A DNA stretch of 64,000 nucleotides. Origin: Eledone cirrhosa. Taxonomy: Eukaryota. This document shows positions 10,171 through 55,849 of the stretch, in pieces. The stretch is taken from positions 42,222,001 through 42,286,000 of the forward strand of contig OZ024743.1 in NCBI GenBank assembly GCA_964016885.1, in the 5' to 3' direction. The number at the start of each line of letters is the position of its first letter. Positions within the stretch are counted from its first letter, which is position 1. The notes beneath the pieces are model-generated. The model was not told the origin of the DNA and made no database searches. It worked only from the letters and a program-made list of their open reading frames with translations. Position numbers and translations under genes: made by a program.

Positions 10171-12166
10171 TAATCTTTATTTTTTAAATGCCATTATGAG
10201 TTTGGAGCTGAATGTGACTGTTATATCTAGCAACTGCTCAACCTACGTATTTGTTGTACTATTATCTCTTAGAATGTAATATTAAGAAACAATTGGGTTA
10301 TCGTCTGGTTCACAGTAAGTATAGGTCATCTATAATATATTGCTACATTTACATATTGTGGAATATTCTGATGATGGTTCTATGATCTTTGGTTTGTTTT
10401 AGCATATCTCTGATTAACTACTAAAATATATTCATTTTTATGGATTATAAATATTAATTAGCGATACAGATAATTCTATTTTTTCATTCAGTATGAATAC
10501 ATTAGAATACTCGAGGGAGGAATCGACTGAGTTTTCAAATAATCCTCTCCATATTGTATTTCTAGTGTAGAAGCTTTACTGAGAGGTTTGGGTGCTATAA
10601 ATGCAAGGTTTCGATTCCTCGCCATAAGAAATGTCTTTGAGAAAAGCTATTTTATTTCAGGTTTATCTAATTGGAAAAAAGGATTTGTAGCTCTAATACA
10701 AATGAACAACATTATCATACATTGTGTGTCGTTAAATCTGCCTGAAAACTACATTATGGATATAGCTTTTTGTCAATTGTTGAGCAACGTGCACTTTAAT
10801 CTGGAGGGCAAACTGTTCCATTTCTGGAAAAACTGAAACGACGGAGATCCGGACATTAAAAGTAATGAAAGAATCTGCCTTTGGTCGTTTAAGATTGTGA
10901 AGTTACACAATTGCAGGGATGTAGCAATATAATTCTCGTTCTCGCTATCAATTTGGTGTTAGAAACACACATTAACAAATGTTCTTTCCCGAGATTAATA
11001 TAAGCACTTTAAGATAGAAAAAAAACAGCTTTATATTGCCGAACGAGGAGTCGTTGTAAGTAGTTTGGTAACACGATTGTTAACCAATCAAGCAATTATC
11101 GACATATTCTAATGGAATTGTTTTTAGATATTTTTTCATTCCTTTAATGCTAGGTTTAAAACCAGAAAAGTTATTGGTAATATGAGGAAAGCTGTGGAGT
11201 TAAAGTGTGTTTAATAATTATGATATGGACTGGAAGTGAATATAATTAGGAAAAAATTAGTTTGATGCCTTTGAGCATAGATTTAAATTTAACACCATTT
11301 AAATTGTAATGGAATTGTAATGCATTAACACTACTGATAACACTGTTCTAATTCAGAATATTTCTGCCGACGAATATTTATTCACACTCGAATTTTAAAT
11401 AATTTCCTTAAACATCACACGATCTATTCATATTTCCACCCTCTCTCTTCCTACCTCCACACACACAAACGCACACACACACGCACACACCCTACCTATC
11501 TATATCTATCTCCACCTTTCTCTCGCTTTCTCCCTTTCATTCTCTTTCGATTTATCATTCTCGATAAATCATTGAATGTGTAAATGAATTATACTTAACT
11601 TAATGTTCTTTCTATATATTTACCCGAGAAAATCTAAGCAGTTTTCATTTCATTCTTGAACGCTACACAATTATTTCCAAAGAGGTAACATTTATAACTG
11701 GTTCTATTAAATACATCAAAAGTTTCAATACTATTTGTACGATAGAGTTATCTAAATTATTCACAAACGTATTCATATATTTTCCCACTCAAATACACTA
11801 TTCAGAATAACACGTAAAGAAGAAAAAATGGCTATATTAATATATCTTCGATATTCATTTATTCCATGCTCATAAAGCACATGAATTTATGCTGTCAGTG
11901 AAACCGATTTATCAAATACAGAGACTGTGTAGTTAAACGCAATATTGTGAAATATTATCTCTCATAGTTTTATCACCATTACTTCGCAAATTGCATATAA
12001 TAGTGTTTGTGGTAGTCCACTTAGCATTGGCTCTATAAATAAATCTTGAAATTGTGCGGCTTGTTAAACCTACCGTCTCTCATCGATAATGTTTGCTACA
12101 TTTAGAGCTAATAACAATAATCATAACACTAACAACAACAACAACAACAATAATAATAATAAAAAT

Positions 12167-14517
12167 GATTTCTTTATTGGCCACAAGAGCTGACATCAAG
12201 AAAAACATTACAGACGGCACAGTACGGTACAGGACGGTACGATATGTGTTTTGTGCGTGTAAATATTTTTATTATTTATATAAGAAAAGGAAAAAAAGAC
12301 ATAGAAACATATATATAAATAATATAAATGAAAATTGAAACAATGAAACATTCCCCAATACGGGGGGGGGGGGTAACCTACGAGGGTTACTCGTGGCGAA
12401 AACCACACAAAAGACCCCGGCCTCCGTGACCACCATGGCACGCGCCCTCTCTCAATTTTTCCATTTCTCAAACTACAGACGTATATTCAGAGCGGTCCCG
12501 TTCACTCGGACCATTCTCGCTACATTCACTCACCTTTCAACAAACTTGCTAGAAGGCAGCACTTGTCTCTCCACCCTGGTTTTCCTATTCAAGTGAAACT
12601 TAAGAAAGTTAATTAGAGATTCGTCGAAGGGGAAAGTGTCTGTCTTTAACCCTTTCAACCTTGTCAACCACACAATCTCTTTCGCCATGGTCACCAGGCA
12701 GATGAAAACCGCCAGCCCTTCCTCCTCGAAGGAAGACGGCGAGACCATCTGCACAATGGACTCAGTCGATAACCGTATCAGTCCTACACACAACAGGAAC
12801 TGTTCGACATAGCTCCACAAGTCAGCAATGCTCGGGCACTGAACGAGTGCGTGCACGACGGTTTCGTCGCTATGCGCGCATCTCGGACAGCCTCGGCTGA
12901 TGGCACTTCCGTGCGTGTAGATCTTATCTCGAACCGGCAGCGCACCCCGGTAGCACTGCCAGGCCAGGGAATTTTGGAAGTTATCCATAGGCCCTGGGCT
13001 GAAAGTTCTCCGGAACAGAGCAAACAGCTGATCTTCTTCGACGCCCAGGATCTCTCCCGGAACGGCGTGGATCTTCCCCTCCACTAGTCCTCTATAGAAC
13101 ACCGAGGTGGATGTTCCACCGATACTGGTGCCCAGCTGGTAGAGGTCAGTGAGCGTCTGGAGACATTCCAGTTTCCAAGCGCTATCCCGCGGTCTTTTTC
13201 TGACCCAGGACTGCAGCTCCGTCAAGAAGACGAGCTGTGGTAAAACGTGCTGGCGAACGGCAACCACATCTGTTCACCGTCAAGGAAGCACCAGAGATGT
13301 CGCAGCCTCAGCACACGTTTGTGCGTCATCAGCCATGGCATTCCCAGTCCTCCACGCAACGGGTGTTGACAGCAGATGGATCATCTGACCATGGGAGCGC
13401 ATTCCTTCCACAAAAGGCGGAAGAGGAGGCAATCCATTTTGGTGAGAGTTGGGCCGGGGCAAGGGACGACGGTGAGGTGGTAGCAGATGACGGATGCGAT
13501 GTACGCATTCGCCACCTCCGCCCGGCCTTTCAGGGACAGCTTCCGCTCGGCCCATTTCTGGGTGAGGAAGGCCACCTTGCTCGTCAACTCGTTCCAGTTT
13601 TTCACCATCTGGAGGTCTGGTCCGAACCAGACCCCGAGCAATTTAACCGGTCCGTCCGTCCAACGCCCCACGAAGCTGTCGGACGCCATGGACTTGCCTC
13701 TCCGGGCGCCGAGCTGCAAGCCCACCGACTTTTCCTGGTTTATCTTTGCTCCTGTCACCGCTTCGTATTCCTTGAGAGCGGTACCGAGCATCTGGACGTG
13801 TCTGCTGCTCGACACCACCAGGGCGACGTCGTCGGCGTAAGCCAACTCGGATTTCCCGCATCCTAGTTCGCGTGATACGCCCCTCATCGTCCCCAGTTTG
13901 TGTAGTAACTGCTCGAGAGCCAATACGTACAAGAGGGACGAGAGGGGACAACCCTGGTGGACTGATCGCATGATGCTTATCGGCTGCGACAGGTGACCGT
14001 TCACCCTCACAACTGAGCAGATGTCGCTGTACATCGCAGCGATCTAACCCCTGAAATCGGGCCCGAAACCGGCTGCCTCGAGGACCGCCGCCAGGTACCG
14101 ATGGTCGACCCTATCGAATGCGGTAGTAGATGACGGATGCGATGTATGCATTCGCCACCTCCGCTCGACCTTTAGGGATAGCTTCCTCTCAGCCCATTTC
14201 TGGGTGAGAGAAGCCACCCTGCTCGTCACCTCGTCCCAGTTTTTGTCCGTCTGGAGGTCTGGACCGAAGCAGACCCCTAGCAACTTAACCGGTCCGTCCG
14301 TCCAGCGCCCGACGACGCTGTTGGACGGCATGGACCTGCCTCTCCAGGTGCCGAGCTGCAGGCCCACTGACTTTTCCTGGTTGATCCAAGTTGATCAGGG
14401 CACCACCCGTGTCAGGTTCCTTAACTATGATGTATCGCATGAGGTGGAGGTTGTCGTGTATGGATTTGTGCAGAATGGCGCATGTCTGCGCCTCTCCCAC
14501 CAGACCATTGACGACAA
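12167..14517 (-). mobile_element. Tx1-A: 5'-truncated, decayed Tx1-clade LINE (RT + C-terminal CCHC)
   Basis: ORF pieces 13381-14034 (QGCPLSS, YADD) and 12530-13267 (CPRC..ETVVHALVQC); 3' end AATAAAGAAATC then an ATT tract. Confidence 0.9.
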
Positions 14518-14814
14518 AATAATAATAATAATAATAATAATAATAATAATAATACTAATAATAATAATAATGGTTTCTTTATTAACCACAAGGGTTTACA
14601 TAAAGTAGACATTAAGGACAGTACATGACAATACAGGACGGTACAAATGGGCATTTATGCGTGTAAAAAAACAGGTGTTGAAATAAAATAACAAAGAAAA
14701 ATTCCCCAAAAGGGGGGAGACTTCCGAGGGACATTTGTGGAGAAAGCCCATTAAAAGACCACAGTGGCCCTGACCACCAGGGCAAGTGCCCTCTCCCAGT
14801 TTTCCACCTTTAAT

Positions 14815-54800: not shown

Positions 54801-54827
54801 AATAATAATAATAATAATAATAATAAT

Positions 54828-55090
54828 GTTTTCTTTATTAACCACAAGGGTTTACATAAAGTAGACATTAAGGACAGTACAGGACAATACAGGACGGTAC
54901 AAATGGGCATTTATGCGTGTAAAAAACTGAGGATGAAATAAAATAACAAAGAAAAATTCCCCAATAGGGGGGGAGACTTCCGAGGGACATTTGTGGAGAA
55001 AGCCCATTAAAAGACCACAGTGACCCTGACTACCAGGGCAAGTGCCCTCTCCCAGTTTTCCACCCTTAATTTACAGACACATTCTCTGAG
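54828..55090 (-). mobile_element. Tx1-G: 3' UTR-only stub most similar to Tx1-B
   Basis: Matches 14572-14834; (AAT)n on both sides. Confidence 0.9.
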
Positions 55091-55849
55091 TAATAATAAT
55101 AATAATAATAATAGTAATTTCTTTTTTTTTAAATTATAATCAATGTGCTGTATTAACCGGCTTACCAATGAACCCTGTGAATTTATTTGCCATATGTGTC
55201 AGGAAGACACTCGGCATATATCTCAGAAACAATAATGAAAGAAAATAAAAGCAATAATAATAATAATAACAACAACAACAACAACAAAAACAACATTGAT
55301 GATGATGAAGATGATATTTGTTTTGTCTCGGTACAGAACTGAGAAATTTATGAAAACTATTATTGATATTGTTTTTGTACAATGTTAGATACTATGCGAT
55401 ACCTTATCTATACACAATCGCATTGAGATCAGACATAAGATAATGTGACAATTGTTTATTTCCATACGTATTATTAATTTAACGGTAACAATAATCTGGT
55501 TTATAAAGCAATTATTATTTGTTTTCTTTCATCTCCAGCACACGCATATATATTTGGCACTTGCATATCACTCGTGGAAATGACAAGTTTTATAGTAAAA
55601 TATCCTATGTAAAGAAAGCTTCAATATTCGTTTACCCTTACTCTTATCACTCGTCTCATTCTGGCAATTGTCGTACAACATTTTAGATTGATTCAAATCA
55701 ATTACAATAATCATTAACAAATTACGTTGATTTTGTACTATGTGTTTATCTACCCATCTTCGGATATTTATTAGAAATGTTGCTTTGTTGTTTTTGTTGT
55801 TGTTATTATTGCTCTTGACAGATAAAAACATTGTTAAATATACATCTAA

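Follow-up and report, generated by a model that had tools for sequence, protein, structure and literature searches.

Long interspersed nuclear elements (LINEs) of the TRAS and SART type, both of which belong to the apurinic/apyrimidinic endonuclease (APE) class, target the repeat (TTAGG)n. For Dong elements, the accessible parts of two sources give (TAA)n as the target, in most insects, molluscs and cnidarians according to the first of them (PMC7998251; PMC3774820). Microsatellite-specific elements of the Tx1 clade comprise Kibi at (TC)n, Koshi at (TTC)n and crocodilian elements at (TTCC)n or (TTTC)n, and tandems of the short interspersed nuclear element (SINE) SINEU arise by sequential insertion (PMC4494074, text available in part). 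Keno (APE) and Utopia, of the restriction-like endonuclease (RLE) class, both enter U2 small nuclear RNA (snRNA) genes, with tandem insertion now and then (accessible part of PMC4640811). For dimers of transposable elements (TEs) and for Drosophila R1, the consulted part of PMC5932611 describes that target duplication permits a second hit and that unequal exchange then expands the tandems. Additionally, 22 templated chimeric L1 insertions, typically of less than 250 bp, are reported in the portion available of 10.1101/2024.08.27.596794, and Dong-R4 and L1-Tx1 families were recently active in Octopus vulgaris, the accessible text making no mention of their targets (PMC13282606). Here, we describe an array of Tx1-like and Dong-like LINEs joined by (AAT)n tracts in a 64-kb stretch of the Eledone cirrhosa genome (contig OZ024743.1, 42,222,001 to 42,286,000; in the following the window, numbered from its first letter). 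We consider it probable that such mixed chains grow by duplication of their target plus frequent completion of new 5′ ends on the downstream neighbour.

The array spans positions 12149 to 55267 and contains 14 inserts and 14 (AAT)n tracts, the latter with about 150 AAT units in total. Seven inserts are minus-strand Tx1-like LINEs (copies A to G), six are plus-strand Dong-like LINEs from three families, and the remaining one, a SINE, occupies a single slot together with copy D without an intervening tract. The first 13 tracts start at 12149, 14518, 20439, 21109, 23557, 29424, 35549, 41613, 47655, 52592, 52745, 54801 and 55092, and neighbouring inserts are spaced by 6 to 27 AAT units. The array is interstitial, lying 42.2 Mb into a 378.8-Mb contig. 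A preliminary description of this DNA had counted 13 inserts in 12 slots bounded by 13 tracts, all of which were recovered with domains in agreement. Its five Dong-like copies of two families are present as well, and a sixth copy, belonging to a third family, has to be added at 55119 to 55252. This insert 14 was first flagged by very high read depth past 55118, the boundary given earlier. Its sequence equals the 3′ end common to 11 other fetched loci, with AAT next in at least 10 of them. As insert 14 is followed by a closing 14th tract (55253 to 55267), the end of the array moves to 55267.

AAT specificity at the 5′ junction is supported for both endonuclease classes. Genome-wide, the family of copy E has 1687 exact 5′ ends, and (AAT)3 comes next at 1641 of them. 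All 30 fetched 5′ junctions of this family begin with the same base after 6–13 pure ATT units, and in at least 21 of the 30 another member of the array set lies past the tract. For Dong-like family 1, AAT is next at 3801 of 4184 exact 3′ ends (two end forms, 1053 + 2748). Among 19 full-length Dong-like copies outside the window, all 17 readable 5′ junctions are preceded by AAT, and truncated Dong-like 5′ ends lie at AAT in 36 of 43 rows, some rows being internal deletions or one locus entered twice. The chance background is 0.5%, as 110 of 21,048 random 57-base windows contain (AAT)3. Random 5′ flanks without AAT elsewhere in the genome had been named in the preliminary description as the outcome to look for against its reading; the comparison was made, and both classes touch AAT at their 5′ ends. 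The orientation seen in the window, with Tx1-like elements on the ATT strand and Dong-like elements on the AAT strand, is kept at 305 of 306 flanks. By analogy with known families, strand and target choice are probably set by the endonucleases of the elements.

A sister lineage of the Tx1-like elements, with an open reading frame 2 (ORF2) about 65–69% identical, is bounded on both sides by (ATCT)n and builds head-to-tail tandems of its own (C3:100.02-100.10 Mb, C4:200.03-200.08 Mb, C2:100.04-100.06 Mb), with ATCT following 7 of the 8 3′ ends that are visible. Its five sampled reverse transcriptases (RTs) form one group (99/98), whose neighbour in the tree, at weaker support, is the ATT-targeting C family. 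Since this lineage targets ATCT and its endonuclease hairpin loop, NRSGTSR-like, differs from the loop of the ATT families, NRIGSSR, we regard element-encoded specificity as a lead. The same lineage bears on the possibility that the tracts are nothing but repeat tails of the elements themselves, left by insertion without sequence specificity. Both classes indeed end in AAT-type tails, and the SINE is relaxed, about ATTAT being enough for it. However, tracts are found at 5′ ends also, including those of Dong-like copies truncated at many positions, and the sister lineage carries its ATCT repeats in their place. This explanation, already largely refuted by the 5′-junction counts, is hardly credible.

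Direct evidence that insertion regenerates the target comes from the target-site duplications (TSDs) of the SINE. A non-simple TSD of 12–21 bp was found for 32 of 86 full-length SINEs, compared to a mean of 1.3 for shuffled flank pairs, and 28 of the 32 start with ATTAT. The SINE lies on the same strand as the Tx1-like LINEs, often in unique DNA, where it needs only this approximate motif. From the common target and strand, we infer that the SINE is moved by the Tx1-like protein; similarity between the SINE and LINE 3′ tails was not significant (89–775 of 1000 shuffles scored as high). Regeneration of AAT targets by each insertion, as claimed in the preliminary description, is thus established for the SINE, and for the LINEs it would follow by inference. 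The long build-up that had been proposed, from decayed to intact copies, agrees with the window: copies with 99–100% identity are placed inside the array, between older inserts, and the oldest inserts include the outermost ones (identity to the best other copy 84–91% for A, about 96% for G and insert 14, a ranking whose comparison pool is biased to the families searched for). Moreover, a young Tx1-like 5′ end adjoins 4 of 19 young Dong-like 5′ ends, against an expectation of at most 2.5% (1641 of 65,958 tract starts; P = 0.001).

The mixed array is a common genome-wide class and not a singular structure. In a sample of 11 blocks at round coordinates (1.2 Mb; automatic calls with one known miss uncorrected), AAT families make up 6.3% and ATCT families 4.6% of the DNA. 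Extrapolation from these 1.2 Mb gives about 20,000 occupied AAT sites, and a geometric tail gives between 4 and about 1,100 arrays with at least 14 inserts, depending on the assumed continuation rate. A longer array of about 57 kb, less one unannotated 7-kb gap, lies on C1 near 93.92-93.98 Mb. What had been presented as one landing pad is therefore of a frequent kind in the sampled blocks. Some blocks hold nearly one type only, and ATT- and ATCT-type families seemingly occupy partly different regions in this small sample.

Of 61 sampled tracts, 11 have a LINE on both sides, 6 on the left only, 10 on the right only and 34 on neither side (odds ratio 6.2, P = 0.006). By a derivation made here, pure self-renewal would leave left and right occupancy independent of each other, and a lack of self-renewal would link them negatively. 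The observed ratio excludes the simple form without self-renewal, but it also calls for regional differences. Arrays might thus be regions that tolerate or attract insertions, in which long pre-existing tracts are hit and regenerated tracts play a minor part. The AAT-family coverage, which varies from 0 to about 21% among the 11 blocks, would fit this explanation, as would an odds ratio above the value of 1 that our derivation gives with all tracts equal. We nevertheless consider it quite improbable, because the 14 tracts together offer so few AAT units, with inserts at such short spacing, because young copies lie between old ones and because the SINE TSDs demonstrate regeneration directly.

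To investigate the relation between neighbouring inserts, we aligned 22 full-length Tx1-like copies, 21 of which come from 7 arrays. Within the first 1000 columns, 5 of 14 adjacent pairs showed at most one difference, as opposed to none of the 206 unlinked pairs (median 10 differences, P = 5e-7). By the same criterion, the last 1000 columns gave 1 of 14 adjacent versus 11 of 206 unlinked pairs, hence no excess at the 3′ end. When upstream flanks are counted, local copying is seen at 9 of the 14 head-to-tail Tx1-like junctions, D/E included. Tract interruptions recur in the copied flanks. Duplication with 0 substitutions was seen for an 806-bp Dong fragment, other copies of which are 98% alike, and for a 232-bp unit. 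Divergence is lower in the upstream than in the downstream copy for 8 of 9 sharing pairs (P = 0.02), and in a Dong pair with a common truncation point 0 departures were counted in the upstream and 3 in the downstream copy. Copies D and E have three common variants absent from the other copies of ten, including an insertion in ORF1 that a few unlinked copies of a wider set also carry. Tandem duplication of whole elements was ruled out for D, E and F, which have 41–112 differing sites, with D and E alike in the 5′ part only. Since 9 of 14 junctions show copying from a neighbour, an independent origin of each tandem insert is not supported. The 5′ sharing likely reflects new complementary DNA (cDNA) finishing on the downstream neighbour.

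Copying was also observed inside an element. A patch of 267 bp in copy A (14120–14386) is 100% identical to positions 15795–16061 of copy B, for which the best match among the remaining copies in hand is 97.4%. The patch is likely a piece of B pasted at a non-homologous position by templated repair. The earlier statement that no element interrupts another holds elsewhere in the array, with A as the exception.

Targeting and regeneration could also hold while the sharing between neighbours arose later, by unequal crossing-over or gene conversion between filled and unfilled alleles. One exchange gives the same structure, the reciprocal product, with a young 5′ and an old 3′ part, fits copy D and one copy on C1, and the patch in A may be local DNA-templated repair unconnected with a 5′ end; expansion of R1 tandems by unequal exchange is described in the accessible part of PMC5932611. 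Under such exchange, however, 3′ sharing would be expected as often as 5′ sharing, and the two were seen at 1 (background level) versus 9 of 14 junctions. For a simple triplication within one array, the needed upstream copy is absent or mismatched. We therefore regard later exchange between alleles as unlikely.

We propose the following course for growth by target duplication and 5′ completion on a neighbour. Tx1-like LINEs and the SINE would enter the ATT strand and Dong-like LINEs the AAT strand, as the sequence pattern at the junctions indicates. A 12–21-bp target duplication together with the repeat tail would then leave a tract on each side and turn one target into two, as seen for the SINE and presumed for the LINEs. 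Reuse of the fresh tracts may let young copies build up inside old arrays. Finally, the cDNA of a copy landing upstream of a relative would pair with the resident and copy its 5′ part and upstream flank up to the nick, which could account for duplications of up to about 3 kb that include intervening fragments. Pairing of cDNA with nearby DNA has precedent in the accessible part of 10.1101/2024.08.27.596794. Whether neighbour-templated 5′ joining is the routine route of LINE integration here, and the about 20,000 AAT chains and the ATCT system (jointly close to a tenth of the DNA sampled) were so built, we judge to be an even call. If so, neighbour-templated joining, perhaps without a second-strand cut, would rescue truncated copies to full length, shuffle subfamilies and duplicate passengers.

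Several observations weigh against this proposal. Truncated Tx1-like 5′ ends lie at AAT in only 7 of 14 rows, internal deletions and loci entered twice being among these rows too, and a LINE target duplication is unmeasurable inside a pure tract. Exact Tx1-like 3′ junctions beside a Tx1-like 5′ end were found in 5 of 30 cases versus 7207 of 65,958 (10.9%, P = 0.23), which is no significant excess; of the clustering beyond (AAT)n density for which a check had been suggested, the association of young Dong-like with young Tx1-like ends stands and this second one does not. Large regional differences likewise raise the odds ratio above 1, so clustering alone is no proof of self-renewal. The 7 arrays, the source of all 14 adjacent pairs, were picked because tandems were present. 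Five of the 14 adjacent pairs, F/E included, showed no sharing, and one older (ATCT)n tandem pair showed no 5′ excess. Lastly, the array junctions are known from the assembly alone, public contigs breaking at the tracts, so that none is confirmed from reads.

This last point, and the 100% identity of several duplicates, would agree with an assembly artefact as the source of the array or of the 5′ sharing, produced by joins at AAT tracts or by consensus smoothing of near-identical copies. We consider such an artefact very improbable. The window sequence contains no N, the tracts of the duplicated units are of unequal length (17 versus 15 units), and the part shared by D and E holds later differences. 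The sharing is one-sided and linked to age, and a like architecture recurs in blocks at round coordinates. The left flank, but not the unique right flank, is matched by contigs of a related organism (about 95% alike), which end in the tract.

By their ORF2 domains, ORF1 and target specificity, the minus-strand LINEs are probably elements of the Tx1 clade (L1 group). ORF2 of copy E, on the minus strand, matches the endonuclease PF03372, the RT PF00078 and zf-RVT PF13966 in Pfam. The closest solved structures of the Tx1-like ORF2 are those of LINE-1 ORF2p, and the catalytic motifs of the endonuclease are present in the alignment. ORF1 had no Pfam match; it has a CCHC knuckle (CX2CX4HX4C) at residue 373, and its look-alikes in a structure atlas carry zf-CCHC and ZCCHC3-type RNA-binding domains (score 0.91–0.94). 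An ORF1 with RNA-binding domains and CCHC is a mark of Tx1. The accessible part of PMC9004415 holds nothing on this mark. The 23 homologues include no named Tx1 element and the outgroups of the tree are unnamed.

The plus-strand LINEs have the features of R4/Dong elements, a single ORF with RT, CCHC and PD-(D/E)xK, no APE and a (TAA)n target. RT is the sole Pfam match of their 1216-aa ORF, which has CCHC at residue 1029 and an RLE motif, RPD...D...K..KY, read by eye. Solved relatives of the protein are R2-type. No named R4/Dong reference is among the matches listed (120 homologues), and the clade is assigned by architecture and target. The N-terminus, where R4/Dong elements have a divergent Myb/SANT domain, is modelled with confidence as four helices and contains two tryptophans that do not vary; a fold search returned a best Z of 6.5 (root-mean-square deviation 7.4, 84 aligned), with SANT and R2 rows at Z 4.3–4.8, and Foldseek returned no match. 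A 5′ ribozyme resembling that of hepatitis delta virus was sought in 47600–48900 without a relevant Rfam match. Within the 5′ untranslated region (UTR) of family 1, positions 48505–48570 are about 80% like the SINE 3′ end. At a Dong-like 5′ truncation lies (AAG)31 (21190–21283), and shorter AAG/AAGGG runs recur at other Dong-like 5′ junctions, which suggests slippage during 5′ joining. For the third family, that of insert 14, the summed contig depth of the 3′ end is about 30x higher in a run of the related organism than in that of this organism, possibly a lineage-specific burst, although depth is not a copy number.

The array begins with a compound microsatellite, (AAC)n(AAT)4, at 12109–12166 (repeats are given on the plus strand). 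Insert 1 (12167–14517, minus) is copy A, a 5′-truncated member of an old subfamily with its identity to the best other copy taken per tile; the patch lies on the same strand. After (AAT)12 ACT (AAT)5 (14518–14571) comes copy B as insert 2 (14572–20438, minus), full length and frameshifted. (AAT)17 (20439–20489) separates it from insert 3 (20490–21108, plus), a 3′ fragment of Dong-like family 1 whose 5′ junction carries a tandem duplication of 22 bp. (AAT)27 followed by (AAG)31 (21109–21283) leads into the 5′-truncated family 1 copy of insert 4 (21278–23556, plus), and (AAT)7 (23557–23577) into insert 5 (23578–29423, minus), the decayed copy C of a divergent subfamily (73% to E). Past (AAT)7 (29424–29444), the 5′-truncated SINE, insert 6 (29445–29543, minus), adjoins insert 7, the full-length copy D (29544–35548, minus), a chimera of an old 3′ part of 1.5 kb and a 5′ part of 1.2–1.6 kb common to E. 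(AAT)12 (35549–35584) precedes copy E, insert 8 (35585–41612, minus), in which ORF2 is open at 35848–39333 (1161 aa from stop to stop) and ORF1 has the same 1-bp insertion as D. Copy F, insert 9 (41661–47654, minus), follows (AAT)16 (41613–41660); its ORF1 is open (45343–47451) and its ORF2 is broken by a 37-bp deletion.

Beyond (AAT)6 (47655–47672) lies insert 10 (47673–52591, plus), a full-length copy of Dong-like family 1 with a 1.1-kb 5′ UTR and the open 1216-aa ORF (48801–52451). Host spacer was ruled out for 47673–48600, as 47673–48800 is the 5′ UTR of this copy. Family 2 is represented by a 3′ fragment, insert 11 (52618–52744, plus), between (AAT)7 at 52592–52612 and (AAT)7 at 52745–52765, and by the 5′-truncated insert 12 (52766–54800, plus). 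(AAT)9 (54801–54827), the Tx1-like 3′ fragment G as insert 13 (54828–55091, minus) and (AAT)7 (55092–55112) lead to insert 14 on the plus strand. The right compound microsatellite, (AAT)5(AAC)n(GAT)n, occupies 55253–55315, its first five AAT units being tract 14.

The SINE has A- and B-box-like motifs, recognized by eye, and a density of about 9–26 matches per 100 kb in most sampled blocks. Further copies lie in the window at 4416–4601, 4614–4794 and 59657–59733, two of them in tandem with ATT runs. The window also contains a 600-bp inverted repeat (7625–8221 and 9018–9620, 97% alike) that flanks an inner 800 bp and resembles a non-autonomous DNA transposon, and a weak direct repeat (60479–60801 and 61342–61742, 63% alike). 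Outside the window, 100 kb at C2:250.0-250.1 Mb have no SINE, LINE or AAT tract match and are perhaps satellite DNA, and three Tx1-like 3′ junctions at C1:45,777,202-45,778,022 are spaced exactly 395 bp apart, in a short tandem unit.

5′ joining is an open step of target-primed reverse transcription, and these arrays offer natural events of it by the thousand, each with a marked template adjoining. For the mapping of endonuclease specificity, the sister lineages with ATT and ATCT targets form a natural pair, and they are also a lead towards programmable insertion. Target feedback would be a simple engine for the growth of a 3-Gb genome, and the non-independence of tandem LINE copies calls for caution when bursts are dated.

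The elements and arrays were compared with the systems named at the outset, as far as the accessible parts of those sources describe them. Like Dong of the R4 clade, the plus-strand elements have a single ORF, RT, CCHC, the RLE motif and a (TAA)n target; unlike Dong, three families share their tracts with an APE lineage on the opposite strand in long mixed chains. Rfam detected no ribozyme in 47600–48900. As with Kibi, Koshi and the crocodilian Tx1 elements, an APE LINE is microsatellite-specific, a SINE uses the same target, and tandems form as in SINEU. The (ATT)n and (ATCT)n targets seen here, in contrast, are unnamed in the accessible text of PMC4494074, although its supplements or Repbase tables may already hold them. 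Two endonuclease classes use one target as in Keno and Utopia, which enter a low-copy gene with one common 3′ flank, whereas here a self-similar repeat survives insertion and the classes lie on opposite strands. TE dimers and R1 tandems are mostly of one family; in our arrays up to eight subfamilies are mixed, at thousands of dispersed sites and with one-sided sharing. The use of one repeat in opposite orientations and the head-to-tail LINE chains recall TRAS/SART and HeT-A/TART/TAHRE, but unlike telomeric retrotransposon arrays the present one is interstitial, has an AAT target and lies neither at a chromosome end nor in telomeric repeats. In templated L1 insertions, likewise, a genomic segment nearby serves as template for the extending cDNA; the template here is a homologous neighbour, with up to about 3 kb copied and 9 of 14 tandem junctions affected. 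Literature searches, mostly of open-access coverage, gave no match for mixed APE/RLE microsatellite arrays or routine neighbour-templated 5′ ends. Regeneration by target duplication and the use of one site by two endonuclease classes are known parts, to which the present arrays add the genome-wide scale, the switch between ATT and ATCT, and one-sided copying from a neighbour.

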